DNA from: a virus
Lineage: Duplodnaviria; Caudoviricetes
Virus record (IMG/VR): IMGVR_UViG_3300020049_008034
Location: 13,549-77,548 of that record
Strand: one strand, 5' to 3'
Length of the DNA: 64,000 nt
Under the pieces are notes generated by a model that was not told where the DNA came from, did no database searches, and worked only from the letters and a program-made list of their open reading frames with translations. The position numbers were made by a program, and so were the translations under genes. Below are positions 1,131-59,932 of this stretch, piece after piece; positions within the stretch are counted from its first letter, which is position 1; every line of letters begins with the position of its first letter.

Positions 1131-1262
1131 TGTTCGTTATATTGAAGCGCACAAGCTTAAACCAAAATCCACGACCATGTAGTTTTTAAAAATAAACTGA
1201 AGTACTCTAGGAGTTAGTAGGTTTACAGACTGACCAATAAGGGGAAAAAACGATTTTTATTA

Positions 1263-1298
1263 TCATCCGGGCTTTAAATACGATTAGACCCCGGATGA
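1263..1298 (+). repeat. Inverted pair of genome motif: TCATCCGGG-N18-CCCGGATGA hairpin
   Basis: Perfect 9-bp inverted repeat 1263-1271 / 1290-1298. Confidence 0.9.
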
Positions 1299-1301
1299 AC
1301 C

Positions 1302-1404
1302 AAGAGATCAGATAGCGAGCTGGCCCGCATGGGTGATCAATAAACGGTGCAAACAAGAGTCTAACTCCCGAAGCTGTAAGCGATTTGCCTGATCTCTTTT
1401 TTTT
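1302..1404 (+). ncRNA. Putative structured RNA closed by a 10-bp stem and followed by a T-run
   Basis: AAGAGATCAG 1302-1311 pairs with CTGATCTCTT 1389-1398; T-run 1397-1404; internal mini-hairpins. Confidence 0.45.
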
Positions 1405-1470
1405 ACGACTCTGGAGCAGAAGGAGTCGCCCGGATGAATACCCTCTAAGCTTTTGTGGCGGCGAGGTGAC

Positions 1471-1542
1471 TTTGCAGTAGTTTAGTGGCGAAAATACTCT
1501 GCGTGTAGCGGGGCGACGTCGGTTCGAATCCGGCCTGTAAAG
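1471..1542 (+). tRNA. tRNA-like gene, nominal anticodon UGU (Thr), non-canonical G33
   Basis: Cloverleaf: acceptor TTTGCAG/CTGTAAA, D-stem GTTT/AAAT, anticodon stem CTCTG/CGGGG with loop CGTGTAG, T-arm GTCGG-TTCGAAT-CCGGC; no encoded CCA. Confidence 0.65.
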
Positions 1543-1547
1543 CAAAC

Positions 1548-1633
1548 TTGATAGGTAGAGGGCAGATGGCTTAGCCCGACCGCTACGTGAAAGTCGTAAC
1601 GGAAACTTGCGGGTTCGAATCCCGTCTATCGAG
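1548..1633 (+). tRNA. Distorted tRNA-like element, anticodon not assignable
   Basis: Acceptor TTGATAG/CTATCGA, D-stem GGGC/GCCC, T-arm GCGGG-TTCGAAT-CCCGT; 5-nt linker after acceptor and an elongated anticodon stem. Confidence 0.5.
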
Positions 1634-1727
1634 CGCAGTCGACAACGCCTGTTTAGCGTCCTCTTGCGCGAAAACAGTAACCTAAAACGCCAATGCGCGT
1701 AAAGAGAGTGACTCCGATACAATCGGA

Positions 1728-1838
1728 TCATCCGGGCGGCTAAAGCAAGCTCAGTAAAAGCCTTGCAAGGGGAGGATGCAGTACTCGGTGCTGTGTAGGG
1801 TTCGACGCCCTCCCTAGCTTAGCTTAGAGCCCGGATGA
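1728..1838 (+). ncRNA. Structured element with T-loop (GGG-TTCGACG-CCC) enclosed by motif inverted pair
   Basis: TCATCCGGGC 1728-1737 / GCCCGGATGA 1829-1838; internal hairpin GCAGTAC-TCG-GTGCTGT. Confidence 0.5.
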
Positions 1839-1842
1839 ACAC

Positions 1843-1916
1843 AGCGGAGTAGCGCAGTTGGTTAGCGCGGGAGGCTCATAACCTCTAGGTCGTCGGTTCA
1901 AATCCGGCCTCCGCAA
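1843..1916 (+). tRNA. tRNA-Met(CAU), initiator-like
   Basis: Full cloverleaf, loop CTCATAA (CAT 1877-1879), 1:72 mismatch and fMet-like 3' half; anticodon stem has AGG rather than GGG and the A11:U24 pair is absent. Confidence 0.9.
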
Positions 1917-1919
1917 CAA

Positions 1920-2001
1920 TTCATCCGGGCGGTTAAAGAAAGTTCTGGAACGCCGAATCAGGAATAAGGTGACGGTATCCCACCTCCTGAGCCCGGATGA
2001 A
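1920..2001 (+). repeat. Motif inverted pair (11 bp) enclosing a hairpin
   Basis: TTCATCCGGGC 1920-1930 / GCCCGGATGAA 1991-2001; internal TCAGG..AGGTG / CACCT..CCTGA stem. Confidence 0.85.
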
Positions 2002-2040: not shown

Positions 2041-2153
2041 CAGTGCTTTCACACAGCGTCTAGGTAAAAACAAACAAGCCAAAGGCTTGGCAATGAAGAG
2101 GGGGTATTACCTGCCCGTGTGAACTCTGATTTGCCAAGCCTTTTTTAATTGTA

Positions 2154-3155
2154 ATGAAAAAGAAAGTTCAATTCAAAGGCCAAGACCTAGAACTTGGCAT
2201 CGGCGAAAGCCTGTGGGTCAACATGAATGACCTCGAAAAAGTATCTAGCATCAAAGTGCTTACCTATCTTCAAACACCCAGGGTTTTATCTTTGGTTGAC
2301 AGAATGGAGCCAAAGCCACTAAAAGTAGATGACAGGGTGATTTGGTTCCCCGAGAAACTGGCATTGGATTATGCAAAAGCAACAGGTGATCACAGCGCTC
2401 TCAGGGGACTGATTTTAGAGCACAAACCAATTAATCCGATTATTGAAAGTAAAGACGGCAAACTCTTGGTCAGGTCTACCGACGTAGCTAACGAGTTCGT
2501 AAAGGATCACGACAATGTTCTTAGGGACATTAGAACAATGGATTGTAGTCGAGAATTCACTTCCCTCAATTTTGAGGTCAGTACATACGTTGACAGTCAA
2601 GGAGTTACAAAGCCGTGCTACTTGATGACAAGAGATGGGTTTTCGTTCTTAGTTATGGGTTTCACCGGAAAGATGGCAGCTAGATTCAAGGAGGCGTACA
2701 TCAATGCGTTTAATCGCATGGAGCACAAGTTAAGAAACAGGGCAATCGCCTTGCCCTCAAACTACATTGAAGCGCTTAAGGCTCTAGTTGTTTCAGAAGA
2801 AGCCCGGATGATCGCAGAAACCCAAGCGGAAGAGAACCAAGAAAAAGCAGAGATAGTTGATCTGATTGTAGAAACTGGCGACAACTACACTATGCAGCAA
2901 GCGGCAAATGTTCTAGGGAGCGGCAGGAAAGACTTTTTCACTTGGCTTAGAGCAAATAACTATCTCCAGTCAAACAACGAACCATACCAAAAGTACATCC
3001 GCCAAAGCCCATTTTTCGTCGTTAAGGAAAGACCCAAAGATGGGCACGTTTACCATACGCCATTCGTAACACCCAGAGGACTGGCGTATTTTGCTAAAAA
3101 GTTCAGTAAAATAAATAAATCTTCTAAAACCCTTGTACTTTTCAATCCTAATTAA
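2154..3155 (+). CDS. Phage antirepressor/regulator: KilA-N-like + Rha + ANT/KilA-C domains
   Basis: Rha motif (STDVANEFVKDHDNVLRDI...YLMTRDGFSFLVMGFTG); ANT motif (AANVLGSGRKDFFTWLR...VTPRGLAY). Confidence 0.85.
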   Translation: MKKKVQFKGQDLELGIGESLWVNMNDLEKVSSIKVLTYLQTPRVLSLVDRMEPKPLKVDDRVIWFPEKLALDYAKATGDHSALRGLILEHKPINPIIESKDGKLLVRSTDVANEFVKDHDNVLRDIRTMDCSREFTSLNFEVSTYVDSQGVTKPCYLMTRDGFSFLVMGFTGKMAARFKEAYINAFNRMEHKLRNRAIALPSNYIEALKALVVSEEARMIAETQAEENQEKAEIVDLIVETGDNYTMQQAANVLGSGRKDFFTWLRANNYLQSNNEPYQKYIRQSPFFVVKERPKDGHVYHTPFVTPRGLAYFAKKFSKINKSSKTLVLFNPN

Positions 3156-3671: not shown

Positions 3672-3940
3672 AACAGGAAATAATCAATAAAATTGCCAAC
3701 TACCTACATTATTGTACGGTATACGAAGCTCCGGACAACATAGATATCGCTGAGGATATATACTCCAAGATTGAGCCCATGATCGAGGCAGAAGCTCAAA
3801 AGTTTGCCGGCTGGGTGGCGAATCAAGCGATTAATGGGAGGACTTATAATAAGCTATGGCTAGACTACAAGCAGAGCAGCAAGGCTGACTGGAATATGAA
3901 TTTGATTACCCCGGTAGATATAAAGCATGACACTCCCTGA
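3668..3940 (+). CDS. Hypothetical protein
   Basis: ATGA-coupled ORF. Confidence 0.6.
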   Translation: MKQEIINKIANYLHYCTVYEAPDNIDIAEDIYSKIEPMIEAEAQKFAGWVANQAINGRTYNKLWLDYKQSSKADWNMNLITPVDIKHDTP

Positions 3941-4421
3941 CTTCATCACGCCCAAATTGATTAGGGAATTTTCCCGAAAAGCTAATGTCTCCGAGCAAGT
4001 CTTTGAAGAATCTTTAGTTGACTACGTGACCACCCAACGTATCACAATCGACTCACGGTACGTCAAAGACTTCCTAAACAGGCATGTCAAGTTTTTAGAA
4101 AAAGCTCCTCCTCGGGTGGTATGGCAGTATGACGCCAGTTCACACATGGATTTGGCTCATAAAGTTGTTTCGTTCCTTAAGAACCTAAAAACGAAAGACG
4201 AGTACGGCCACACATACGGAAAGACAGTGACAGGTCTTGAGATTGACCGAGTCCCGGATGAACAGGCACTCACGACCGCCTTGATTAAAGGCTGGGTCGG
4301 TAGAGAAGATTTAAAATCAATTTGCCTATATTGGCGCAAAACCAAACCAAAATCATTTGTTTCTTTTCGTACTGAAAATGACTGGAAAGAAGAAGTGAGG
4401 TGGTGTAAAAATGGGTTATGA
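3927..4421 (+). CDS. Hypothetical protein, possibly replication-associated
   Basis: ORF in run preceding helicase; function inferred from position only. Confidence 0.6.
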   Translation: MTLPDFITPKLIREFSRKANVSEQVFEESLVDYVTTQRITIDSRYVKDFLNRHVKFLEKAPPRVVWQYDASSHMDLAHKVVSFLKNLKTKDEYGHTYGKTVTGLEIDRVPDEQALTTALIKGWVGREDLKSICLYWRKTKPKSFVSFRTENDWKEEVRWCKNGL

Positions 4422-9854: not shown

Positions 9855-10078
9855 TGGGAGTCAAGTATCATCTTTTATCTGAAAAAGCCAAGGTATATAA
9901 AAAGCTACCTAAAAATGCTACTGAACCAGTTCTTGAGACAGAAGAAACAATCGAGTACCATGTTTTCCCGTGGTACTATATCGAGCGCAAAGAAGCTGTT
10001 AACAAGTGTTCCTTTTGCGGCAAACCCAAATACAACCCCTGCATCCATCAGTCACAAGTAAAATACTGTAAGCGATGA
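9854..10078 (+). CDS. Small Cys-containing hypothetical protein
   Basis: CSFC...C motif; coupled ORF. Confidence 0.5.
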   Translation: MGVKYHLLSEKAKVYKKLPKNATEPVLETEETIEYHVFPWYYIERKEAVNKCSFCGKPKYNPCIHQSQVKYCKR

Positions 10079-10956
10079 TCTACACCTCAACTGCACCCAT
10101 CGCTAAAGGGTTATTAAATGAGCTCCGTACTAAATTTCACCAAGAGGTGAAGTACGGAGCTTTATTTGATATTTTTATGTTCTGCGGCCCTCGGGCGAAT
10201 GAGGTTTTAAAACTACAAGTCGCCCACGTTGCAACCCCTTTAAGCAAAATTGACTGGGAATACGTGGACGGGACGTGCCGGTGGGGGGAGACGAAAAAAG
10301 GATTTAAGTACGAATACCAGATTCGTGACAACATTCTTTTCTATACAACAAAGCAAGACCGTAACGGAAGGCGAACAAAGCGCACTCCGCCTATCAATCC
10401 TCTTCTTAAGGCATCTTTAGGGAAATATTTAGACGGAAGTATCTTGAACCCGGATGATCTTCTTTTCCCCGGAAACAGCGGTAAAATGCTTAGCTATGAA
10501 GCCATTAACCGAAGATTGGAAAAATACTGCGCTGAGCTACGCATCGACGAAACCGTTTTGGGTGGTCAAATTGGGTTTCACATGATTAGGAAGGCTTTTG
10601 CCGTTGCACTTTTTCAACACTTCGGTGGAGGGCTTCTGGCTGCAATTAAAGTTCAAAAGGAATTTGGTCACAAAAACCTACTTACAACCTATCGGTATTT
10701 AGGTGTTAGGTTAGACGAGGACGTCCACGATGCCATCCGGACTGGAGAAATGTACAACGTTACTCTTGTAGACCGCATACAAGGTCGTGAAGCAGCTTTA
10801 GTAGGTTGGCAGAATCTTTATACTATATTTGAAAATTCTGGCGTCCTAGACTTGCAAATGACCAACTGGCTTCGTACCTTTACATCGGACGAAAAAGACA
10901 TCGACCGCACTTTGCAGTGGATGAAATCTCATAACCAAAAAATTGATTTTTTATGA
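10075..10956 (+). CDS. Tyrosine recombinase (integrase/Xer-like catalytic domain)
   Basis: GPRANEV (Arg), HMIRK (HxxR), GH and TYRY (Tyr) catalytic motifs. Confidence 0.88.
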   Translation: MIYTSTAPIAKGLLNELRTKFHQEVKYGALFDIFMFCGPRANEVLKLQVAHVATPLSKIDWEYVDGTCRWGETKKGFKYEYQIRDNILFYTTKQDRNGRRTKRTPPINPLLKASLGKYLDGSILNPDDLLFPGNSGKMLSYEAINRRLEKYCAELRIDETVLGGQIGFHMIRKAFAVALFQHFGGGLLAAIKVQKEFGHKNLLTTYRYLGVRLDEDVHDAIRTGEMYNVTLVDRIQGREAALVGWQNLYTIFENSGVLDLQMTNWLRTFTSDEKDIDRTLQWMKSHNQKIDFL

Positions 10957-19651: not shown

Positions 19652-22600
19652 TTATTTCTTAAGAAATTGCGGTTCTTTTATCTCTCCAGTCTGGATTGCT
19701 TTGACCGTAACGGCGTCTAGTCGCAAATCCTTAAGTGCTTCATCTATTTTCTTTTTGTCGACTCCTGGGAACTCGATAGCTGCCATATATATTTCATGGA
19801 AATCCATGACAAACTTAGAGTAGTCCTTCATTTCTCTTTCTTTTACTTTAGCAAGGTGTTCTTTACGGTCCTTTTCGGGTAAGGCTTTGACCTGCTCTTT
19901 ATTTTTCTCCACCCCGTAATCTGCCTTTGAATCATTTATTTTATCGGCCATATTCCGACCCAGAAATCCAAACGACCGATGAATGTCCACGTTATAAGAT
20001 CTAAATCCAGGGAATATCGCAATACCCTCTTGTATTGGGTTTAATTTTCCGTAATAATCGGTTTCTGGTTCATTAAAAGACCTAAATACTCTCTCGAACG
20101 ACTTCAGTGTGCCGGGAGTGAGCTTCTTCCCTACATGCTCCATCCGGGCTTTTAGCCAGTCTGTTTCACCGACTTGAGAAATTGGTCGCCCTGTTTTACC
20201 TAACTGCTGGCCATAGGTGGCTTCCAGCAACGATTTCATTAAAGGGTCGATAGTGTAAAATGGCTCAAAGAATTTCTCTGCTGCCCGACCCGCGTTTTCA
20301 GCAGGAGAGAAGCGCTCATCAGAAACCGTTGAAAGAGTAGATAAAATGTGCCCTTGAGGGAACATATAACCCCAGTCATAATAGTCAACAGAGCCTTTCT
20401 TTTCGTTCCATGGTGATGGGATTAAAAGAGATCCTTCATGGTAAAAAGGAACGAAATATTTTAGTTTTTCATCGTCATCGTCAGCCCAGCCGAGCATATT
20501 TGTAATTAGCTCTTTTAAGAGAAATGGAGCAATGGACACAGCCATTGTGCCAGCCATCACCTTACCTAGCATCAAGTTCTTATAAGACATGTCCACCCCG
20601 GCTACCTTTACTTTCGTATCTTGGCCCATCTTCATATCCTGGACTAAATTAGCCATGATATTATAAGACACTCTAACCATCTCGTAAGGGAAGGATGGGA
20701 ACGGAGCTACAAAAGGGTTGCGGCGGAGAGCCTTGATGTTCCTTGGGAGCCGAGAATAGGTTGGGTTTTCGCTTGAAACGCGCTCAGCGGCCAATTGTTT
20801 GACTTCTTGTTGCACATCTGGGCTTAAGGTGTCGTATTCAGCACCCTTGTAAAGCCGAGCCATCTTGTCTAGGTTCCGATAGTAGTCGATAGCCCGATAA
20901 AACTCATCGCCGAATTGGTAGATGTGAGACATAAACTGAGTTACCATTCGCCCCTTTTCGGCCAGCTTGCCTTGGGTGGTATTGTCGACTCCTGCGAACT
21001 TTCTAGCATACTGTTTTCTAACGTCAGCGATTTCTCCGAAAGTAATCCCATCTCCCAAAACCCCGAGTGAATACATTTCAACCAATTCGGCCTCATTATT
21101 GCCCTTAAATAAATCAAATGCCTTTTTTATATTAGGGTCGGCTACATTAAACAAACCTTTTTGGGCTTGTAGTAATAAGTTTGAAGTAAAGTTTCTTGCG
21201 GCAGACGCAATAGAAAAAATAGTCATGAATGACTTTGCCCGAGACGTTATTCCGAGCATTGATTTGTAAACCAAGCCCATAACATCTCCTTCCTCGGTCA
21301 TGTCGCCGATAGGTTTATTGTAAAGTCTAAAAGCCTCTACGATCTCAGGAGTAGAATAATATCCAGCCAATGGCCCCATTTGGGGAGTGTCAGGGAATTG
21401 TGTGGTGTAAGCCCCGGTTGGGCGTTCAAACAAAAACTTATCCCGCCCTTCGTCTTCGACCTTAGATAAGAACTTATTATTCTCTAAAATATGTGCTGTT
21501 TTAAAAATAGAAGTCATGTAGTTTACAATGGGGTCTTTGACCTCGCCAAAAACATCACGGATTTCTTCGGCGATTTCTTTTCGCTTTTTAAATACCCCTA
21601 AATTCATAGAGCCCAACGACCCGCTCTTGGCTACGTCACCCAAAGAAAGTCCCTTGGCTTGTTTTTCCAAAATTGCATCAAGCTCAGCTTCTACGTCTCT
21701 ACCGATACGTTTTTTCTGATTTTCAATTCTTTTCCCCCAATATTCAGGGTTATTAGGAAGTTTTGCTTGGTATTTTGCAATTTTAGCCTGAGCGTCAACT
21801 TCTTCTTGGGCGAACTTTTTATCAAGAAAAGCCTTGGCCCGAGTGTAAACAGCGGTGTCCTTCACGTTCTTAACCCAGTTCTTATTGAAGTGAATCTGAT
21901 AAGAACGGGTCAGGTAAGTATCAAGGTTTTTGGAGATAATCGCGGCGAGGTTTCCGTCAGCAATTCCTGTGTTAATTAACTCAGAAGACATTGAGGTTAC
22001 GTGTTCGCGCATCTTACCAATTAGATCCAAAACTTCAGGCTCAATTGGCCGACCATCGGAATAAGTAGTGGCAGTTGACTGTAAGGCGTAGTTTAAATCC
22101 TCAATCTGCTGAGGTGTTTTGCCTTTAATCAGCTTTTTGAGTTTATTAGCCGTCAGCTCAGATTGCTTCATCATCCCCTCGATCCGAGCTATTCTACGAT
22201 AGTTGAGTTGAGCAACATCTAATGGAAGATCACCACGACCAAAGAAGGTGTACTTCCATGCTTTTTTTAACCAACTCATTGCCCCTGATTTCGCTATTAC
22301 TCCCCATACTTTGTCAGTGATGAAGCCCGGCTGAGCAGCAAAACTATTTACTTCTTCGATCAGAGGGAGAATGTTGGGTTTTGGACGATTTGGATTATTC
22401 GGGTTTGCTTCGGCAGGTTGTTGAGATGTCGCACTTATATCTGGTGTTGCGTACTTCGCTCTAACTTCCTTTTGTCTCCTATCAAATTCAGCAAAATCCT
22501 CTTCAGTTACCTCGTCTTTACCTAACGCAGCAGCAACACGTCCTTCGGGGTCTACTCCTGAAACTCTACTTAAAAACGGAAGATCTTCTTCTGATACTCC

Positions 22601-25570
22601 TCTAGCTTTTAATTCGTCATAAACCTTTTGCTGATCTGCATAATTATCTCCGCCTTCTTCGTTTTCCATCCGGGCTTCAGCTCCAGCGGATGCCTCCTCC
22701 ATGTCGGTTAGCGTGTCGGCCAGAGATAGGGTATCGGCGTTTTTCGTCCAGTCTTGATTACCCAAGCTAACCTCTTGAGGTTTTTCGGCGGAGGCACTCT
22801 CATCTGCCTGAATTTCAATCACATTCTCATATGGATCAGCAGCAACCTCCTCCAATGATCTTGAGTTGACAAACCCGACGGACGTCGGAGAGGTTATAGC
22901 TCTAGGTACTGGAGATGTTGGATATTTTTTCTCCAAACTAGATAAACTTGCGCTAGAATCTGTATCCGGCAAATTCACGGCTGTTTCAGCATAACCAGTG
23001 TCGGTTGATCTTTTATCTGAAAATTCAACTCTGGTGGGGATGGACTTTACGCCCAACTTCTTTGCCGCAGCTACTCTATGGTTCCCTTCGGTAATGACGG
23101 CTTTCTTGTCTTTAAATACAGTTAGTACAATTGGCTCTTTAATACCGCCGTCTTTAGTGATCTGATCCGCTAATTCGTCTACGTTTCCAGATGTTTTAGG
23201 GTCGACAGCCCTGTCTACTTCCACAAATTGAGATATGTCGTCAACCGGAACATATTCAGGCTTACTGGATGGTCTCGTTATTTCTTTGTCTGCCAATATG
23301 GTTTCCGCGATACTCTTGCTGGCCGCAACAGATTCTTCGTATGTTCTTGGCGTAATCTCTTGAGGAGTTTCGGTCGGCAAGCTTCCATCTTGATTAACGG
23401 GTTCTTGCGCAGTCGCTTCTACTATTATTTCGGCGGGTAAATTTTCACCAGTTACAACATATTGATTAATAGGCTCTTGCGCAGATGTTTCTTGAGGGAC
23501 TTCGGCGGATTCAGCAACAACTTCATCTGAAATCTCCTTCTCATTCTCCTTAAAAATCTCCACCTCCTTCGCCTCGGCTTGTTCTTTAAAAACCTTAGCC
23601 TGAGCGTCAGCACCAATGGCTTTGGCTTTTTCAGCTTTGTCTTTTAGATCGGTGAGCTCGTCGAGTTTTGGAATGTCTTCTTCCTTGACCTCTTTTATCT
23701 CGCTTAGCCCTTTAATTTTTAGGGCTTTGTTGTACATTTTTTCAACGTCAACTTTTTTGCCATTAGCCACCTCGGCCTGCAAGGCTTTTTTGAACTCTTC
23801 AGGATTTTCAGCAGCCACCAGCCAAGCTGAATTCTTAAAATCACTCTCTCCTGCCCCCATTAACGCCCCAACAGCAAATGAAATTAACGCTGTCCCTTTC
23901 ATCTCATTTAGATCGATGTCTTCAGCGTCGCCATTTAAAACCATGGCAGTAGCTCCTTCGATTGCTTTTTCAAGAATTGTTTCTTCAAACATCTCGCCTG
24001 ACCCTTGTTTGAAAAAATTGGTAGCAGTTCTAGCGGCAGCGGCCTTTGGCGTAAGACCTTTTACGGCTTGGGTCATCGTGATGTTATCAAACACTCCCGG
24101 TCCTCCGGCGAGTCTTGCTTCAACTCCAAAAAGATTAGACCCCACCCCAATTGCTAGGCCGGTCATGGTAGCGTACTGAGCTGCCTTTCTCTTATCGCCA
24201 TCAAACATCTTAAGACCTTGATCATATAAACCTCCAGCCATTTGACCCATCGTTGAAGCAGTGACCCCTGTGGCATAGGCAGCTTTCGCCCCCATACCTG
24301 TCTTAACTAAACTCCCACCTATGCCTTTTGTGGTGGCAATTTGCACCATGGCATCGGCTAAAACCTCTCCGGTTTGATAAAACAAACCTTTGCCGTTGTA
24401 TTGGTTTTTAGCTTCTAGTCCTTTAAATTGATTAGGATCGGCGTCAATAACAGAACCTTTACTATCTCTGACGACCGTGGGTTTGCCGTCTTGGAAATCT
24501 ACTTCGACTTTTTCTCCGTTTAGAGTCGTCTTCGCGGTTTTAGTATAAAGGGGGCGAGTGTATTTAGTGGGCCGTGGAGCAACTTTGGCGGTTTGATCTT
24601 GGAAGTCGATAAAGAAATCTTCGATCTTATCCCAAGTCCCGTAGGTTTTATCTTCGGTTACAAGATTTTCTCCAATATTCATTACCTCTCCGATAGACCC
24701 AACCAGCTTGCCGGTTGCTCTTTGTAGGATTCCCAAAGTCAGATTACCCCAGCCTTCTGTTTCTGATTTCTTCTGCCTGTCAGCGTCGTATTTTTCTAAT
24801 GCCCGAGCGTAGGCGTACTTGTCGTCTTTTAAGATCTGAGCGCCTGACTTCTGATTAGCCTCAAGTGCAGTGATAAACTTGTTTCGGTCGTTAATAAATT
24901 CGTCTTTCTCAAACTCCTCTTGGCGCTTGATGATCTCGTTCTTGTCGTACTTGTAATTTGGGTCTTCTAGGGCTTGTTGACGAGCGTAATATTCTTCCAT
25001 CCAATTATCCCCCCACTTTTCTTTAATACGCGCCTCAGCAGCTTCTACAGCTCTCTGGAGATTCCCTGAGTCAGACTGAAGAGTATTCAACCGGGCTTCA
25101 TATTCTTTTTCTGGAGCTATAATTGATCCTTGGACTTGTTGTTTAGTATAGTCGTCAAGATCAGCAGCTTTTTCAAAGTTAGGTCTTTGGCGGGCTTTTT
25201 GCAAAGCAAGTTCTTGTTCTGCTCGTTTAGATCCAGCAATAGCTTCCGGCGTCAGTGGTCCGGATGAACCAGTAAGTGATGTCCTTGTGGAAGGAGAAGC
25301 AAGTTTAGGTGTGCCAGAATCCCATGAATAGCTTGCGCCAGAACCCGATATTTGGCTGTTTGACTGCGCTTTTTTTTTACTTAAATCCTCGAACTTGGCA
25401 TGAAAGCGAGTCAAGAATTCATCCGGATTGAGGTCCGAATAAGAGTCTTTACGCAGCATCTCCATCGTTTTGAGATACTGCCCATTGTCGATATATTTTG
25501 CTTGAATTTCTGCGTCGGTTAACTTTGGATTATAGTTGCGTGCGAATCCAAAAATTGGATGTTCTTCCAT
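19652..25570 (-). CDS. Large virion ejection/cargo protein (1972 aa) with internal ParB/Srx-like domain
   Basis: Position in ejection cluster, Gly/Ala-rich helical segments, EPIVL...ITEGNHRVAAAKKLG, LPD38-like C-terminus. Confidence 0.7.
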   Translation of the reverse strand: MEEHPIFGFARNYNPKLTDAEIQAKYIDNGQYLKTMEMLRKDSYSDLNPDEFLTRFHAKFEDLSKKKAQSNSQISGSGASYSWDSGTPKLASPSTRTSLTGSSGPLTPEAIAGSKRAEQELALQKARQRPNFEKAADLDDYTKQQVQGSIIAPEKEYEARLNTLQSDSGNLQRAVEAAEARIKEKWGDNWMEEYYARQQALEDPNYKYDKNEIIKRQEEFEKDEFINDRNKFITALEANQKSGAQILKDDKYAYARALEKYDADRQKKSETEGWGNLTLGILQRATGKLVGSIGEVMNIGENLVTEDKTYGTWDKIEDFFIDFQDQTAKVAPRPTKYTRPLYTKTAKTTLNGEKVEVDFQDGKPTVVRDSKGSVIDADPNQFKGLEAKNQYNGKGLFYQTGEVLADAMVQIATTKGIGGSLVKTGMGAKAAYATGVTASTMGQMAGGLYDQGLKMFDGDKRKAAQYATMTGLAIGVGSNLFGVEARLAGGPGVFDNITMTQAVKGLTPKAAAARTATNFFKQGSGEMFEETILEKAIEGATAMVLNGDAEDIDLNEMKGTALISFAVGALMGAGESDFKNSAWLVAAENPEEFKKALQAEVANGKKVDVEKMYNKALKIKGLSEIKEVKEEDIPKLDELTDLKDKAEKAKAIGADAQAKVFKEQAEAKEVEIFKENEKEISDEVVAESAEVPQETSAQEPINQYVVTGENLPAEIIVEATAQEPVNQDGSLPTETPQEITPRTYEESVAASKSIAETILADKEITRPSSKPEYVPVDDISQFVEVDRAVDPKTSGNVDELADQITKDGGIKEPIVLTVFKDKKAVITEGNHRVAAAKKLGVKSIPTRVEFSDKRSTDTGYAETAVNLPDTDSSASLSSLEKKYPTSPVPRAITSPTSVGFVNSRSLEEVAADPYENVIEIQADESASAEKPQEVSLGNQDWTKNADTLSLADTLTDMEEASAGAEARMENEEGGDNYADQQKVYDELKARGVSEEDLPFLSRVSGVDPEGRVAAALGKDEVTEEDFAEFDRRQKEVRAKYATPDISATSQQPAEANPNNPNRPKPNILPLIEEVNSFAAQPGFITDKVWGVIAKSGAMSWLKKAWKYTFFGRGDLPLDVAQLNYRRIARIEGMMKQSELTANKLKKLIKGKTPQQIEDLNYALQSTATTYSDGRPIEPEVLDLIGKMREHVTSMSSELINTGIADGNLAAIISKNLDTYLTRSYQIHFNKNWVKNVKDTAVYTRAKAFLDKKFAQEEVDAQAKIAKYQAKLPNNPEYWGKRIENQKKRIGRDVEAELDAILEKQAKGLSLGDVAKSGSLGSMNLGVFKKRKEIAEEIRDVFGEVKDPIVNYMTSIFKTAHILENNKFLSKVEDEGRDKFLFERPTGAYTTQFPDTPQMGPLAGYYSTPEIVEAFRLYNKPIGDMTEEGDVMGLVYKSMLGITSRAKSFMTIFSIASAARNFTSNLLLQAQKGLFNVADPNIKKAFDLFKGNNEAELVEMYSLGVLGDGITFGEIADVRKQYARKFAGVDNTTQGKLAEKGRMVTQFMSHIYQFGDEFYRAIDYYRNLDKMARLYKGAEYDTLSPDVQQEVKQLAAERVSSENPTYSRLPRNIKALRRNPFVAPFPSFPYEMVRVSYNIMANLVQDMKMGQDTKVKVAGVDMSYKNLMLGKVMAGTMAVSIAPFLLKELITNMLGWADDDDEKLKYFVPFYHEGSLLIPSPWNEKKGSVDYYDWGYMFPQGHILSTLSTVSDERFSPAENAGRAAEKFFEPFYTIDPLMKSLLEATYGQQLGKTGRPISQVGETDWLKARMEHVGKKLTPGTLKSFERVFRSFNEPETDYYGKLNPIQEGIAIFPGFRSYNVDIHRSFGFLGRNMADKINDSKADYGVEKNKEQVKALPEKDRKEHLAKVKEREMKDYSKFVMDFHEIYMAAIEFPGVDKKKIDEALKDLRLDAVTVKAIQTGEIKEPQFLKK

Positions 25571-25572
25571 GG

Positions 25573-27255
25573 TTAAATTTTAGGGGCTCCAGCCCAGCCA
25601 CTTTTTTGAGTAGGGTTGAAATAGTTTTCGATTTCGGCTTTCTGCATTGACTTACCGACAGCTTCAAACGGCTCTTTGGTTTGCTTGATGGTCTGGCCGT
25701 GAATTCTTTTTAAGATTTGCTCGTTTTCAGGAGTGATAGGGACTTTTAAGACAGTTCCGAATTTTGACTCGTTGCGGTAGTAGTCAACCAAGTTAGAGTA
25801 AGCTTTCCCCTCGGAGGAGTTATCCCCACCCTTTTTAATCTCGGTGTACATTTTCTCCCGAGCATTCTCCATTTCGGCCTGATTCCGGAAAACGATCTGA
25901 AGCACTTTGACTTTTTTGTCCGGCTTGCCCATAGTGTATTGGTCGTAAGCCCGTTTACCTTTTTCGTTTATGTTGTAGTCCTCGGAAACAAACGCTGAGG
26001 CAACTTGAGACTTATCAACTCCCAATCCCTGAACCAGCCAGTTTGCCGCTTCGGTAGATGTTGCCTTATCCTTAGATGTTAGGTTTATCCGCCACTTATC
26101 ATAGTTAGCCCGGGCTTCGGAATCTGAAAGATTCCCTGACCCCGCCCGGCTTAATCCGTATTCTGATTTAGTTGCAATATTGTCTTTAATTTGTTTTGAC
26201 ATCGCAACAATTGCTTTTTTCTTTCTCTCTTCTAACGGAAGGTTAGGATCAACACCCAAGGCTTCCATGTACTGAGGTTCATTGAGAGCCCATGCGTTTT
26301 TAGCAAAATAAGAAGTTGCTTGTTGTGTTGGGTATGCTGAGTTCTTAAGGAAGCTCTTAGAAGATGATATAGTGACTTGTGAGCGATCTTCAACCGACGA
26401 CTCGCTAGTTGATAGCTCTGCCTTGTTTGCGATTGCTAGTGCGTCCGCAGCGATGTCTAGTGGAGGCTTTTTGTATCGGCTTTTTAATTGGTCGTTGGCG
26501 TATGCTAACCAACCTTGCCCATTGAACCCGGGAGTGTTTTGAGCTTCTGAAATGTAAGCGTTCTGAGTTTCCTGATCCAGAGAAGAAAACATTTGCTTGG
26601 CAGCTACTACATTCTTCCCCGCTTCCGGTGTCGAGAAATAAGATACAGAATAATTGTTAAAATCACGATCTGTTAGTACGTTGTCTCCGGCTGCTTTCTC
26701 CAAATTGCCCAACCCATTCACCATATAATCTTGATGGATGGTGGAAGGATTTTTGAATTCAGCTTGCGGGAAGTCAAATTTTCCGGTGGCGATTACATCA
26801 ACCGGGTTGTTGGCGGCGAAATTTCTTACCTTTTCTTTGTACTCGTCAGTATACTCATCCCCACGGGAGTTGATATCCCCCATGGCTTTATCCCATAATG
26901 CTTTAGCTTGTTTGATATTCTCGTTGGCTGCCTTGATCCTAGACCCTTCGATCTGCCACTGAATTGCTTCATCGTCGTATCTCTTAAATGGGTTGCCTTT
27001 GGGCATCATCTCAGCGCCTTTGTTGACCCAGTTTTCCCATGTCTTTTGCTGCGCCCCGGAATAAAAGTGCCAAACTTCTTCGGGTTTAACATCCATCATG
27101 CCTTTCGACAGATCGGCAGCATCCTTGGCTTTGTCATTGGCTTTTTTAGCCGCATACCCTTCGTAAGACGCCAAAGCGCGGCTAGGGCCAAGAACTGTTG
27201 CCAGTTGATTGCCCTGTTGCCCGGTATAAACTTGTCCTAAATTTGATCCAATCAT
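25573..27255 (-). CDS. Putative ejection/cargo protein
   Basis: Helical, Ala/Lys-rich, between cargo-type genes. Confidence 0.55.
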   Translation of the reverse strand: MIGSNLGQVYTGQQGNQLATVLGPSRALASYEGYAAKKANDKAKDAADLSKGMMDVKPEEVWHFYSGAQQKTWENWVNKGAEMMPKGNPFKRYDDEAIQWQIEGSRIKAANENIKQAKALWDKAMGDINSRGDEYTDEYKEKVRNFAANNPVDVIATGKFDFPQAEFKNPSTIHQDYMVNGLGNLEKAAGDNVLTDRDFNNYSVSYFSTPEAGKNVVAAKQMFSSLDQETQNAYISEAQNTPGFNGQGWLAYANDQLKSRYKKPPLDIAADALAIANKAELSTSESSVEDRSQVTISSSKSFLKNSAYPTQQATSYFAKNAWALNEPQYMEALGVDPNLPLEERKKKAIVAMSKQIKDNIATKSEYGLSRAGSGNLSDSEARANYDKWRINLTSKDKATSTEAANWLVQGLGVDKSQVASAFVSEDYNINEKGKRAYDQYTMGKPDKKVKVLQIVFRNQAEMENAREKMYTEIKKGGDNSSEGKAYSNLVDYYRNESKFGTVLKVPITPENEQILKRIHGQTIKQTKEPFEAVGKSMQKAEIENYFNPTQKSGWAGAPKI

Positions 27256-27842
27256 ATTAGTGAAAACTTCAATACTTCCATGAGTTTGGACATATCAAGT
27301 GGTTTTTGACCACCTGTCTGCCCTCCGTACATCTTTTTAATCATATCCATCTGTGCATACATGTCGCCAGCTCCGAAAAGATTCTCAAGCCCACCTCCAA
27401 CCAGGTTTTTGGATTGTTGAGATTTATCGGCATACGGAGCAAATTGATTCATCTGGAACTGAAGGTCTTGAGCTTGTTGCAGTTTCCCAAGCTCCCCTTG
27501 AAGAGAAGCGTAATCTTGCTGTTGAGACTGTTGGTTATACATCTCAAGATCCCGCATGGTTTTCTGTTGAGCGCCAGCCAGTGATTGAATAGACTCTTGG
27601 GGGTTGCCTTGCTGTTGGGATGCTGCCAATTGGTTACTCAAGGTAAGATCAGCTTGCATTTTAGCCTGTCCATATCCCGGAGCATTAGGATCAGCTACGT
27701 TGACACGCGCCAGCGCCAAAGACTCTCGGAGAGCTGGCGGGATTGGGTAGTCTGGTCGATCTCCTTTGGATAATAATCCGCCTATCATTTGTGCGCCGCC
27801 AAGAATTCCTTGGCCTAACGCCAACATTGTCATTGGGTCCAT
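27252..27842 (-). CDS. Small ejection/pilot protein
   Basis: Gly-rich hydrophobic N-terminus (LGQGILGGAQMIGGLL) followed by Gln-rich region. Confidence 0.65.
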   Translation of the reverse strand: MDPMTMLALGQGILGGAQMIGGLLSKGDRPDYPIPPALRESLALARVNVADPNAPGYGQAKMQADLTLSNQLAASQQQGNPQESIQSLAGAQQKTMRDLEMYNQQSQQQDYASLQGELGKLQQAQDLQFQMNQFAPYADKSQQSKNLVGGGLENLFGAGDMYAQMDMIKKMYGGQTGGQKPLDMSKLMEVLKFSLI

Positions 27843-29020
27843 GATGTAAAATTAGATTGTGGGTTACTGAATTCAGCTTCACGAGTCATTACTCCGACTA
27901 ACGTTGGCAGTTCGTCGTGATTTTTAGTCTCTACCCTAGAGACATGGTTTATTAATGCGAACTTTTTTATGTTCTGAGCGGCCAATAAATCACGGTCATT
28001 GATTGATCCGCAAGAATTACATGTCCACTCTCGATCAGAAAGTTTAAGTTCTTTATTTACGACACCGCAATGACACATTTTAGATGATGGCTCAAACCGA
28101 CCAATACGAAGAATATTAACTCCGTACCATTCGGCTTTATAGGTCAAAAACTCATTAAATTTACCCCATGATACATCTTGTATCGCCTGGGCTAGTTTAT
28201 GGTTTTTCATCATCCCGCCTACATTCAAAGTTTCCAAAGCGATAGCTTGGTTCTCGTCTATCAGCTTTTTAGTTACTTTATGTAGAAAGTCATTGCGTTT
28301 GTTGGCTACTTTTTCATGTAGTAAAGCTAGTTTTCGTTTCGTTCGCTTGCCTTTATATTTTGAGTATTTGCGTTGGGTGTACTTTAGTTTAGATAATGCC
28401 TTTTTTAGGCATCTTGGGTTTTCGATCACCCGACCATCAGAAAGTGTAGCAAATGTTTTTATTCCTAGATCGACGCCAATTGTGTTTTCTTCAGTTGCAA
28501 CTGGTTTTACGGGAGTATTTTCGGTAGTTTCGAATAAAACTGAAATAAAATATTTCCCAGTTGGGGTTTTCGAAACTACACCCGATTTTACTTTTCCTTC
28601 AAATTTACGGTGGATTGCAGCCTTTATTCCTTCTCTAAATTTGGGAATCTCAATAAAATCATTCCCAACCCTAAGCAAAGAAGTAACGGTAAACGATTTT
28701 CTACTTGTCTTTTTGTTTTTAAACCTAGGGAAATTGGATTTGCCATTAAAGAAGTTAGTATATGCTGAGTCCATTTTGCTAACGGAAGCTTGTAGCGATT
28801 GCGAACTAACCTCTTTTAGCCATTCGCAGTGAGACTTTAAGTCTGGAAGTTGATTTATTAAATCAAATCTAGATAAGTTAACCCTAACTGATGACCACGC
28901 AGCCTGCTTTGTCTCCAAGGCTAAGTTATAAACAAATCTACACGCGCTAATATGCTTGTCAAGCAATTCAGTCTGAAGTTCAGTTGGGTAAATTCGATAT
29001 TTTATAGCCTTTATGACCAT
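27830..29020 (-). CDS. tnpB: TnpB RNA-guided endonuclease (IS200/IS605 OrfB)
   Basis: HTH KAIKYRIYP, RuvC GVDLGIK / ALETLN / DRDLLAAQNI, Zn ribbon CHC...CNSC; start at MVIK (29020). Confidence 0.95.
   Translation of the reverse strand: MVIKAIKYRIYPTELQTELLDKHISACRFVYNLALETKQAAWSSVRVNLSRFDLINQLPDLKSHCEWLKEVSSQSLQASVSKMDSAYTNFFNGKSNFPRFKNKKTSRKSFTVTSLLRVGNDFIEIPKFREGIKAAIHRKFEGKVKSGVVSKTPTGKYFISVLFETTENTPVKPVATEENTIGVDLGIKTFATLSDGRVIENPRCLKKALSKLKYTQRKYSKYKGKRTKRKLALLHEKVANKRNDFLHKVTKKLIDENQAIALETLNVGGMMKNHKLAQAIQDVSWGKFNEFLTYKAEWYGVNILRIGRFEPSSKMCHCGVVNKELKLSDREWTCNSCGSINDRDLLAAQNIKKFALINHVSRVETKNHDELPTLVGVMTREAEFSNPQSNFTSWTQ
27868..27960 (-). ncRNA. Putative omegaRNA scaffold overlapping tnpB 3' end
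   Basis: Hairpin GTCTCT/AGAGAC (27927-27943), CACGA/TCGTG pairing, ends GAAGCTGAATTCA; omegaRNAs overlapping the tnpB 3' end are established. Confidence 0.55.
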
Positions 29021-29024
29021 ACCA

Positions 29025-29056
29025 TAAAGATACAAAAAATAATTTAAATAAACAAA
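29025..29056 (-). promoter_or_regulatory. Promoter 4 nt upstream of tnpB ATG
   Basis: TTTG, 20-nt spacer, TATCTTTA, TGGT, ATG. Confidence 0.6.
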
Positions 29057-29082
29057 CCTTTTGTTTAAATATAGCATTCTAG

Positions 29083-29382
29083 TTATTTTTCTGATTTACG
29101 CAAGTATCCATCCAGTCTTGACATAATATCTTTCGACATGTCAACATAGGTCTCGATTTTAGCCATCGAGACTCGGATGGCATTCACGGCTTCGCGCGTG
29201 TTTTCGTTGTCTTTCTCCACTTCTTTGATCTTTTCATCAATTGAAATAAATCGCTTTTCCGTGGAAGTTTGATGTTCTTCCATCACAGTAAGTCTTTTAT
29301 TGATAGAGCTCACATAACCAGCGAGGACTATCAATGTTGGTATTGCGACAGCCGCAATACTAATTAGATTTTCTAACTGCAT
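29083..29382 (-). CDS. Small TM plus coiled-coil protein, holin-like candidate
   Basis: Single N-terminal TM then coiled coil. Confidence 0.45.
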   Translation of the reverse strand: MQLENLISIAAVAIPTLIVLAGYVSSINKRLTVMEEHQTSTEKRFISIDEKIKEVEKDNENTREAVNAIRVSMAKIETYVDMSKDIMSRLDGYLRKSEK

Positions 29383-57433: not shown

Positions 57434-57710
57434 CTTTTGTTTGATTTACCACCCGTAGTTGGCGGTCTTCGATGAAGAAATCCTTACCGTGAGGAAGTAG
57501 AACTCGGTCGCCTACTTTGTATGGGCAAGGGTGGATACCTATGGCCCACTTAAGTCTGGCGATGAATGGGTAATCAGGGAGGTAGGGTGGACCGAGAGAT
57601 ACGACCACACCCCAATCTTCTTTGATTTTTTGGGTATAAACTGATGAACCAGATTCCGTGGGTTCAATGACTGCGAACCCACGGTTGGTTTTAAATTGTT
57701 CTGTGTACAT
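57408..57710 (-). CDS. groES: Co-chaperonin GroES-like
   Basis: GVVVSLGP...KVGDRVLLP; directly downstream of GroEL. Confidence 0.75.
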   Translation of the reverse strand: MYTEQFKTNRGFAVIEPTESGSSVYTQKIKEDWGVVVSLGPPYLPDYPFIARLKWAIGIHPCPYKVGDRVLLPHGKDFFIEDRQLRVVNQTKVEVYERAN

Positions 57711-59160
57711 TGTTGAATTCTCGGATTAATGAATAAGCCGATTTGATCGACTCGTTGACAACATCGGCTGATTCCCAAATGTCAGCTTCATCCGGGCTCA
57801 TGTGTTTTTTGGTTCGGAAATTGTAAACCGTTCCGCCTTCGTCGAGATCCATTGACCGCAACAGTTTTTTACGCGGCTCGTAGATCGCCTCTCCGAATCT
57901 CTCATACCCTTCTTTGTAAGCTTGTTCGGAGATCTTAAAAAATGAATATGCGCATCCGGGAACTACGCCATTTTTTAAGACGGAAATAGAAGAAATAGCG
58001 CAGTCTTCAATCGAATCCCCGATAAGCCGGTGTTCAGCCTCGGTGTCTCCGCCGATGTAGATGAAACCGACACCCTTTGATAACTTGGAAAGTCTTTCCT
58101 CGATGTCATCTTGGTTTTCGGGTGTGATTTGAGCTTTCAGGTCATCGATCAACTTTTGAATTACCCCGAGATCTTTCATTTTGATCCGAGAGTACCCTTG
58201 TTGCCCTGGGCCAGACTGCGTGAGCTCGATTTCTTCGGCTTCTCCGAGGTCTGCGAGTTCGAGGCTTGTTCCTTTGATCGGGAACAGGAACTTAGTAGAC
58301 TGAGAGAACACTGTCGCCCCAGTTGCTTTTTTGATGTCTTCAAAAGAATACCCATCCTTCCATCCTGCGGCTAGGAAAATCGGAAGCCCTCTGTGTGATT
58401 TGCGAACACCGTTGTGCATCCATTCCCTTGGGGTGAGGTTGTCTAAAACTGCTTTAATAGCGGGTTTGGCGATCTCTGTTCCGAAAATAACAAGTGGGCG
58501 GTCTGTTCCAAGTTCCATGTATTTTTGGATAATCAATCCCATTTGCTGATCTCCCATGATAGCATCGTGAACCAACATAACATATGGGTTCTTGAGAACC
58601 ACGGAGTTGTGCGTATACTCGGCATGTGGGGAACGATTCATGAAGTCCGGAGTGTAAAGACCCCCGTCTGTCACATATCCTTCCTTGATTTCGATTCTCG
58701 TTTTAGAGCCGATGTTCGAAATAGGAACGATGTATGCGTGAGTACCAAGCTCCCAAATTAGATCAGCAACAAGTTTAGACTCTGGTCGACCGTTACCGGA
58801 AATCCCGGCAGCTTGGTAAAATTGTTCTTTAGTAGCCTCTTCACCTTTGACTAAGAATTGATCGATGTCAACATCTTCCCAGTTTTCCAAGAAAGCCCCT
58901 GCCAGGATGGCAGTAGTTGTTGTGCCATCTCCGGCCTTTTTGACTGTGCGGTTACAAGCGTCCGCTAGAAGTCGGGCTCCAGTATCGTCTGGTTTGGCGT
59001 TGATGTACTGCATCAATGTCTTAACGCCGTCTCGTAAGATGACGGGATGTGGGATGCCTTCTTGTTTAGAAAATAGAACATTTCCTCCGTTGGGACCGAA
59101 AGTTGTACCTACGGTGTCTGCTGCGTCCTTGATTTGGACGGCGATGTCAGTTTTTGTCAT
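57691..59160 (-). CDS. groEL: Phage chaperonin GroEL-like (489 aa)
   Basis: TFGPNG, DGVK, GDGTTTT, IEDC and GVVPG motifs. Confidence 0.92.
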   Translation of the reverse strand: MTKTDIAVQIKDAADTVGTTFGPNGGNVLFSKQEGIPHPVILRDGVKTLMQYINAKPDDTGARLLADACNRTVKKAGDGTTTTAILAGAFLENWEDVDIDQFLVKGEEATKEQFYQAAGISGNGRPESKLVADLIWELGTHAYIVPISNIGSKTRIEIKEGYVTDGGLYTPDFMNRSPHAEYTHNSVVLKNPYVMLVHDAIMGDQQMGLIIQKYMELGTDRPLVIFGTEIAKPAIKAVLDNLTPREWMHNGVRKSHRGLPIFLAAGWKDGYSFEDIKKATGATVFSQSTKFLFPIKGTSLELADLGEAEEIELTQSGPGQQGYSRIKMKDLGVIQKLIDDLKAQITPENQDDIEERLSKLSKGVGFIYIGGDTEAEHRLIGDSIEDCAISSISVLKNGVVPGCAYSFFKISEQAYKEGYERFGEAIYEPRKKLLRSMDLDEGGTVYNFRTKKHMSPDEADIWESADVVNESIKSAYSLIREFNNVHRTI

Positions 59161-59932
59161 AAATTACCCATTTGCCGGTTGAAGAAGTAATTTTTAAACC
59201 CCTTGCTACGGCGTTATCGATGTTTTCTAGTTTGTATTTCTTGATTGTTCTCCACAGTTTCTTGTCGTACCGACTATCGGTAGCGTATGGGCTTTTATGA
59301 AACACATAGCACCACTCAGCGGTAGACAACTCTTTCCCTTGGGCATTCTTGATCACCCGGTAGTTAGATAAAATTTTGGCCTTACGTTGCCATCCATGCC
59401 ACTGCGTAGGCATGATTTCGTAATAGTCGTTAGACCCCTCGATTTTATCATACCCACGAATACAAGTTGGTGTTTTCTCTAATTCGAGCCTTGCGTGAAT
59501 TCTCCTTAATCTTTTTGACCCATTACACCGACATTTAATATTACCGCTGTTGTTTGTTTTTTGGGTTAACTTGGATTTCCCGAACCTAGACTCTAATGCG
59601 TCCTGAGCGATTAAGACGGATGGGGGACAGCCGATTAGCTCGGAATATGTTACCGCTCTTTTGATAATTTCTCCGTGAGCCAAGTAGTCTCGGATCATTT
59701 TATCAGAGACTAATTGATCGAGTGATACCGATTCTGTAGCTAATGCCAGTGGAGTTCGGTGAGTCGTAAGCGGTGTATCTACGAGTTTTGGTCTAATTAC
59801 ACTGACTAATGTCTCTTCGTCGCTCTCCTCGAAACAAGCGATAGGCTGTTCGGGAGGAAGGATGGCAGCGTTGCACAACTTGTAGTCTTTTACAGCAGTT
59901 AGTGCGATTAAAATAATAAAAAATCTAAGCAT
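59147..59932 (-). CDS. Glucosaminidase (GH73/FlgJ-like) with N-terminal hydrophobic anchor
   Basis: IAQDALESRFG, NNSGNIK and YATDSRY motifs. Confidence 0.85.
   Translation of the reverse strand: MLRFFIILIALTAVKDYKLCNAAILPPEQPIACFEESDEETLVSVIRPKLVDTPLTTHRTPLALATESVSLDQLVSDKMIRDYLAHGEIIKRAVTYSELIGCPPSVLIAQDALESRFGKSKLTQKTNNSGNIKCRCNGSKRLRRIHARLELEKTPTCIRGYDKIEGSNDYYEIMPTQWHGWQRKAKILSNYRVIKNAQGKELSTAEWCYVFHKSPYATDSRYDKKLWRTIKKYKLENIDNAVARGLKITSSTGKWVIYDKN

Follow-up and report, generated by a model that had tools for sequence, protein, structure and literature searches.

The locus considered here is an untranslated island at positions 1100–2040 of a 64,000-nucleotide stretch of phage DNA, and the question that it raises is why copies of one short sequence word gather in inverted pairs around its tRNA genes, and whether the hairpins so formed act in RNA. 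The stretch (hereafter the window, in whose coordinates positions are given unless another sequence is named) comprises bases 13549–77548 of the 77,548 bp IMG/VR virus record IMGVR_UViG_3300020049_008034, which comes from an uncultured wastewater phage and is ∼48% complete by CheckV. The word is TCATCCGGG(C), 9–10 letters long with an invariant core of 8 nt, and it recurs throughout the record. The island is a phage tRNA gene cluster, with at least two tRNA genes lying close together on the same strand of a phage genome, and is no new class of RNA. Its word-closed stems and their positions are conserved across relatives, whereas the interiors of the units are not and are mostly debris. The favoured reading, given a little less than an even chance, is that the genome-wide word stands at the unit borders of the cluster and that its stems delimit the units of a polycistronic precursor. 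The interest of the island lies in the link between a tRNA cluster and a genome-wide word, and in its location at the point where the polarity of that word switches.

Organization of the island

Seven copies of TCATCCGGG occur within 740 nt, at 1263+, 1290−, 1429−, 1728+, 1830−, 1921+ and 1992−, and this is the density peak of the 77.5 kb record (Poisson P of 1.7 × 10−5 per 740 nt window and ∼0.002 genome-wide). Six of the copies make up three perfect inverted pairs: 1263–1271 with 1290–1298 (9 bp, the tenth position placing C against C), 1728–1737 with 1829–1838 (10 bp) and 1920–1930 with 1991–2001 (11 bp). Two openers have 18 nt in common (TCATCCGGGCGGCTAAAG at 1728 and TCATCCGGGCGGTTAAAG at 1921), all six closers, counting those of the two relatives described below, read CCCGGATGAA, and the flanks of the seven island copies share nothing beyond the word. 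The copy number, the three pairs, the shared opener sequence and the further stems at 1302–1398, 1661–1706 and 1713–1727 had all been described in the original prediction, and each is found where it was placed.

Two tRNA genes are clear: tRNA-Thr(UGU) at 1471–1543 (ARAGORN; Rfam tRNA, 41.4 bits) and tRNA-Met(CAU) at 1843–1917 (ARAGORN; Rfam, 63.7 bits). Word copies flank the latter 4–5 nt upstream and 3–4 nt downstream, the TCATCCGGG form being the one that follows its 3′ end. Two tRNA-like genes had been predicted in addition to tRNA-Met, and the second of these proves to be degenerate. It is a long-arm tRNA-like gene at 1548–1634 that ARAGORN reports at -ps80 only and that Rfam matches to tRNA-Sec at 19.4 bits (E of 0.7); its T-arm alone fits the tRNA model. 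These three genes and a possible fourth at 1738–1820 all lie on the plus strand, as do the other features of the island described below.

The word-closed units are three in number. U2 (1263–1298) is a word hairpin in which TCATCCGGG, an interior of 17–18 nt and CCCGGATGA form the 9 bp stem (−18.4 kcal/mol, z −5.5). U8 (1728–1838) is closed by the 10 bp stem (fold z −3.3), and its interior (1738–1820), which contains a T-loop-like GGGTTCGACGCCC, is possibly a decayed tRNA; ARAGORN calls it at a relaxed threshold only and the tRNA covariance model gives no match. U10 (1920–2001) is closed by the 11 bp stem (fold z −4.25) and is paralogous to U8 across the first 27 nt of both.

The array is fronted by a predicted promoter of the Bacteroidota host type, P1 (1100–1130; TTGC-N19-TATATTTG by pattern scan), with a transcript start expected near 1137. 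An A/T-rich untranslated leader, U1 (1137–1262), follows; it holds no open reading frame (ORF) and folds no better than shuffled sequences (z +0.27). U3 (1302–1404) is a long stem-loop with a 10 bp closing stem (1302–1311/1389–1398) and a U-run at 1399–1404, and could be a tRNA-sized unit or a leaky terminator. Next to it a short hairpin (stem 1406–1412/1422–1428) and the sole unpartnered word copy (GCCCGGATGA at 1428–1437) together occupy 1406–1437. U7 (1634–1727), between the degenerate tRNA-like gene and U8, is a spacer with conserved ends, a variable middle stem at 1661–1706 (1661–1670/1695–1706) and a hairpin at 1713–1727 (1713–1717/1723–1727) directly before the word copy. The right border is P2, the promoter of the Rha/Ant gene (2010–2040; TTTG-N19-TATCTTTG), and the pattern scan places no other host-type promoter in the island than P1 and P2. 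No plus-strand ORF of at least 33 codons occurs between 1094 and 1996. The locus had been described beforehand as a gene-poor array behind a promoter, and the promoter ending at 1130 and the lack of plus-strand ORFs bear this out. A protein-coding role of the minus strand was considered and rejected, as its ORFs at 1207–1731 and 1824–2009 belong to no Pfam family and run antisense over the tRNAs.

Conservation in relatives

A metagenome scan with an Ant homologue of 55% identity yielded two short contigs that carry the word, L137 and L138; the Ant homologues used for the search are ∼55–58% identical to the window protein. The order in L138 is tRNA-His, an atypical tRNA, U7, a word hairpin with a 26 nt interior, ∼135 nt of unassigned sequence, tRNA-Met, a word hairpin with a 40 nt interior, a second tRNA-Met and P2. 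In L137 two DNA methylase genes (an N6/N4 DNA methylase at 3–596 and a C5 cytosine methylase at 688–1869) surround a 36 nt remnant (626–661) that ends in the word and is 94% identical to window 1966–2001; a promoter, a word hairpin with a 52 nt interior, a tRNA-Sec-like unit and P2 follow. Both rearranged islands precede the same promoter and Rha/Ant gene. The P2 block is identical at 48 of 48 positions in L138 (2000–2047) and at 40 of 40 in L137 (2008–2047), the ends of U7 (1634–1650 and 1701–1737) are 94–95% identical to L138 compared with 85% for tRNA-Met, and U10 has a partial orthologue at L138 584–643.

Within this rearrangement it is the paired borders that persist. The L138 word copies after U7 and after tRNA-Met retain their downstream inverted partner, although the sequences between the partners have been replaced (after U7, 91 nt in the window and 26 nt in L138; after tRNA-Met, 60 and 40 nt), and one inner stem pair has changed from C-G to A-T. 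In all three genomes the CCCGGATGA form ends 3–6 nt before the start of a tRNA or tRNA-like unit. The interiors of the word-closed units in the three genomes (about 17, 26, 40, 52, 60 and 91 nt) are mostly unrelated. Thus, the proposal that motif pairs bracket units is upheld insofar as the border pairs are kept in two relatives despite replaced interiors, and is weakened by the occurrence of such pairs in protein genes as well. The original prediction had also looked to relatives for conserved structure within the cassettes; this is largely lacking in the interiors but not in the stems.

Other searches returned little. No close relative was found in IMG/VR, among the GenBank phages or in the prokaryote genome collection, and tRNA-Met was the sole match to the island in the GenBank phage collection. 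Within IMG/VR the primase led to three distant loci, all devoid of the word, and the terminase to none; exact patterns for the 18-mer, P2 and the U7 block gave zero matches; the hairpin pattern gave 45, close to the chance estimate and none in a word-rich contig; and alignment of the Rha/Ant protein was swamped by generic Rha proteins. The prokaryote genome collection gave zero matches for P2 and the U7 block.

RNA folding and transcription

Only the word-closed units fold better than their shuffles (1258–1303, z −5.5; 1725–1842, z −3.3; 1917–2005, z −4.25), and the segments 1299–1445, 1631–1740 and 1135–1262 do no better. Since in addition the interiors are mostly unrelated, they do not constitute a new structured-RNA family, and the structured RNA cargo that had been proposed for the cassettes is not borne out. 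Rfam searches of the island, at the gathering cutoffs and with E up to 10, give only the two tRNAs and weak tRNA-Sec, YrlA and leader-like matches, and ARAGORN finds no tmRNA. The earlier statement that the locus fits no family was too strong, because it belongs with the phage tRNA clusters. Two further ideas, a permuted tRNA and a tRNA acceptor stem as the origin of the word, were dropped after inspection by eye gave no matching T-arm. A plus-strand scan for intrinsic terminators found none: directly downstream of the word hairpins come ACCAAG, ACACAG and AAAAAAC, and the only stem-loop followed by a U-run is the 97 nt one at 1302–1398.

The fold of an 874 nt transcript has two competing registers. 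In the minimum-energy fold the copy at 1429 pairs with that at 1728 and the copy at 1830 with that at 1921, so that the tRNAs are enclosed. In the centroid fold 1728 pairs with 1830 and the spacer is enclosed.

Parts of the stretch are contained in 20 public sequencing runs, mostly from wastewater, four of which were examined in detail. Two metatranscriptome libraries of one study hold relevant contigs. One contig of 205 nt corresponds to 1164–1365. The other, of 164 nt, is a complete insert with Illumina adapters on both sides and matches exactly 1305–1442 without mismatch. The matched span starts on the opening base of a 7 bp terminal stem, 6 nt beyond a word copy (1305), and stops 5 nt beyond the following copy (1442). 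The ends of this insert hint at cleavage at a fixed distance after CCCGGATGA, where the 5′ ends of the island tRNAs otherwise lie, and the two contigs weakly indicate transcription across 1164–1442. Contigs from DNA runs or runs of uncertain type join 1721 to 1921 and 1624 to 1920, and show a different tRNA end before 1921 and a different interior after the 1728 copy. These joints are suggestive of unit turnover at the word borders.

Distribution of the word in the genome

The record contains 30 exact 10-mers, 56 9-mers and 81 core 8-mers of the word, and the window alone holds 60 copies of the 10-mer with at most one mismatch where 2.8 are expected. Inside confident genes the 9-mer occurs 16 times antisense and eight times sense, compared with 0.56 and 0.25 expected from synonymous-codon shuffles, and every frame that is free of stop codons is occupied. 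This use of all stop-free frames, together with the excess over codon shuffles, points to selection at the nucleic acid level.

Placement and orientation differ between parts of the record. In the early block upstream of the window the word stands 1–3 nt after stop codons and 13–40 nt before the next start, always in the sense direction; outside that block it is antisense in ∼26 cases versus sense in five. Two copies overlap a host-type promoter or transcript start. Along the record the polarity is plus at 2–15 kb, minus at 15–26 kb and plus at 27–77 kb. The island (window ∼1263–2001) is exactly where the first flip occurs, with gene direction unchanged, and the second (window ∼12900) coincides with a turn in gene direction.

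Among all 81 core copies, neighbours no more than 130 nt apart are inverted in seven cases and direct in none, where random placement gives 4.6 and 5.7, respectively. Four of the seven close inverted pairs belong to the island; two lie inside genes, at window 8424/8490 and 17299/17367 (66–68 nt apart), in the primase gene and another gene. The copy within the Ant gene (window 2802–2811, L137 2701 and L138 1329; peptide EARMIA) sits in a 21 nt block that is identical in the three genomes while its flanks diverge.

A proposed tRNA precursor with spacer hairpins

On the favoured reading, P1 at 1100–1130 would drive a single untranslated precursor containing tRNA-Thr, tRNA-Met, one clearly degenerate tRNA-like unit, the conserved spacer and possibly two more units (1302–1398 and 1738–1820). 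The inverted border copies would fold in this precursor into stems of 9–11 bp that close the spacers in one register and, in the alternative one, hold leader and trailer together around a tRNA. Such stems could delimit the units for processing and shield the excised pieces from exonucleases, and a conserved border word as short as this one may allow related phages to swap units. If the stems do work in RNA, the same word marks tRNA-precursor units, early-gene junctions and late-gene interiors, and one reader, whether a nuclease or an RNA- or DNA-binding protein, could govern tRNA supply jointly with early shut-off and antisense control. The island would then be the smallest and best-conserved place in which to look for that reader. 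If the hairpins are incidental, what is left is an ordinary, fast-evolving phage tRNA cluster.

Several observations weigh against a role of the stems in the precursor. The invariant 8 nt core yields no covariation, and the one compensatory change, at a variable position, is weak evidence. Of six stem-end mismatches, four set C opposite A when read on the plus strand and would be G-U wobbles on the minus strand, so that RNA of the tRNA sense is not favoured. Stems of 9–11 bp are short for RNase III, and inverted pairs also lie in two genes, that for primase among them, where there is no processing unit. Since the word is above all a signal of the whole genome, the hairpins may be a by-product of a function at the DNA level. 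The RNA evidence consists of two low-depth contigs from one study, without strand or read-level ends, which could represent DNA carry-over or a single PCR-duplicated fragment, and the contig joints have short sides (21–31 nt) of 85% likeness that may come from other organisms.

Alternative explanations

The strongest rival, improbable on balance but a serious one, is that a DNA-binding protein of the phage or its host recognizes the word in DNA, where it would serve as a polar operator or a roadblock in the manner of cluster A mycobacteriophage stoperators. In the island such sites would be crowded together in both directions, so as to insulate the tRNA unit or set its timing, and the RNA hairpins would be incidental. 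The asymmetry of the word, its genome-wide occurrence in all stop-free frames far above the codon-shuffle expectation, its sense placement directly after early-block stops, its overlap with promoter or transcript-start sequence at two places and its ∼26 to five antisense bias elsewhere all suit such a site, as does the preservation to the codon of the Ant-gene copy in relatives. There is also a precedent in the L5-type monomeric repressor, whose binding sites, asymmetric 13-mers numbering more than 20, are situated in promoters and short intergenic spaces and act according to their orientation (PMC9283540), and the tyrosine recombinase and Rha/Ant genes of the record hint at a temperate phage. 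However, no candidate reader protein emerged, the word switches its orientation with respect to transcription between the early block and the remaining genome, which stoperators do not, and the plus-strand copies of the island would block the tRNAs themselves. A DNA site also leaves unexplained why close pairs are exclusively inverted, why they are retained as pairs in relatives and why the island stems extend to 10–11 bp, beyond the core.

A second possibility, to which only a small chance is given, keeps the word in RNA but moves its action in trans. The island would make stable small RNAs that present the word either single-stranded, as in an RNA ending at 1428–1442, or as a duplex. Seed RNAs of this kind could pair with complementary copies in early-gene junctions or late messages, or act as decoys for the reader of the word. 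Were this so, a DNA word occurring about once per kilobase would be tied to an RNA-based switch of the infection programme, located at the polarity flip.

A similarly small chance is given to the proposal that the word copies are recombination borders at which related phages exchange tRNA and small-gene modules, the hairpins having no role of their own. Between identical flanks the three relatives do differ in their units, a 36 nt piece with the word at its end survives in L137 between two inserted methylase genes, breaks in metagenome contigs fall on the edges of the word, the U8 and U10 paralogues start with the same 27 nt and the word stands at nearly every gene junction of the early block. 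Against this, an identity of 9–10 nt is very short for homologous exchange, and breakpoints that fall at the only conserved letters are in part an artefact of alignment; the in-gene copies, the strand bias and the exclusively inverted close pairs are left unexplained.

Rated lower again, and improbable, is a replication origin or strand-polarity switch at the island, with the word as a strand-specific signal resembling Chi or a priming site. The plus/minus/plus polarity, the first flip of which coincides with the island without a change of gene direction, the adjoining helicase and primase genes, the promoter and A/T-rich leader and a spacing of about one copy per kilobase would fit. This reading requires an odd fork geometry with a terminus just 11 kb away, however, and the GC skew tracks gene direction without a turn at the island, there are no iterons beyond the word, and the link of early-block copies to stop codons would be needless for a replication signal. 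Neither of these last two readings need exclude the others.

REPIN- or MITE-like mobile units, or attC/pdif-type cassette sites with small RNA cargo, are largely refuted and very improbable: inverted copies do bracket units in alternating orientation, and TnpB and tyrosine recombinase genes exist elsewhere in the record, but conservation stops at 10–11 nt, most copies are single and inside genes, target duplications and repeated cargo are absent, no Y1/RAYT gene was seen and the recombinase gene is 8 kb away. REP and REPIN sequences are extragenic imperfect palindromes of 20–40 nt, and the REPIN-like units of the original prediction can be set aside, as the word is conserved over only 9–11 nt and lies mostly in genes. 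Among the ORFs scanned, in a record holding ∼48% of the genome, no RAYT (Y1 transposase) was found and only TnpB was present. An attC or pdif site is a composite of at least ∼28 bp with two half-sites and an adjacent recombinase; here the flanks are unalike and the sole tyrosine recombinase is at 10072–10956.

Genomic context

The island lies between a small early-gene block and the replication genes (Rha/Ant, DnaB-like helicase and primase), with the Rha/Ant regulator gene directly to its right. The record encodes a large terminase, a primase, DnaB-like and other helicases, a tyrosine recombinase and TnpB, and promoters of the Bacteroidota form (TTTG or TTGC, ∼19 nt, TAnnTTTG) precede several of its genes. 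The tyrosine recombinase has 294 residues and belongs to the Phage_integrase family (window 10072–10956, plus strand); taken with the Rha/Ant protein, this is a hint that the phage is temperate or proficient in recombination. TnpB is full length (OrfB_IS605 and a Cas12f-like TNB domain; window 27830–29095, minus strand) and is situated amid virion genes, with no TnpA beside it among the ORFs scanned. A virion-type protein of 1975 residues with an internal ParB-like domain (window 19652–25579) and a phage GroEL-like chaperonin (window 57691–59163) are also encoded on the minus strand.

The 5′ leader of the Rha/Ant gene (window 2041–2150, L138 763–880 and L137 2195–2312) ends in a long stem and a U-run, followed by the start codon. 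The stem survives several two-sided changes in the relatives, and the preceding promoter block is identical; it may be an attenuator or a regulated terminator.

Single copies of the word that precede early genes are often followed by a mini-hairpin, GGGC-NNN-GCCC (L137 3146–3170; record 5827 and 7557), and at one orthologous site L138 (1768–1782) has lost precisely this mini-hairpin. A match to the type III hammerhead is present at an early-gene junction upstream of the window (record 3922–3976; 41.5 bits, E of 2.7 × 10−6), below the Rfam cutoff of 48.5 bits. A second hammerhead candidate had no counterpart in Rfam with E up to 0.1.

Comparison with known systems

In the processing stems of rRNA and tRNA operons and in the REP/BIME stabilizer hairpins, complementary flanks pair around or beside a stable RNA within a precursor. 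The complementary flanks of the island can likewise pair around or beside a stable RNA, but its stems measure 9–11 bp, always consist of the same word and use a word that also occurs in genes.

The unit at 1728–1838 resembles YrlA and other bacterial Y RNAs (PMC4201824) in that a long terminal stem closes a possibly tRNA-like domain, whereas the other word-closed units have no tRNA-like interior. Assignment to YrlA or Y RNA was rejected, as the match reaches 15.4 bits compared with a cutoff of 69 bits and the record has no TROVE match.

With the cluster A stoperators (PMC9283540) the word shares its shortness and asymmetry, its tens of copies, its placement in promoters and short gaps and its strong orientation bias. 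Copy number and asymmetry are those of such sites; the orientation runs with transcription in the early block only and against it elsewhere, the word being sense in the former and antisense in the latter. Conserved inverted pairs and many in-gene copies further set it apart from stoperators.

The tRNA region of T4 combines tRNA genes with two co-transcribed stable RNAs. The crAss-like phage phi14:2 has highly transcribed early intergenic regions (bioRxiv 10.1101/2020.03.07.982082). The island resembles both in its position between early and replication genes and in its make-up, an ORF-free array behind a promoter with tRNAs and further non-coding units on one strand. Unlike either, it has its borders marked by inverted copies of a genome-wide word of 9–10 nt, and several of its units appear to be decayed tRNAs.

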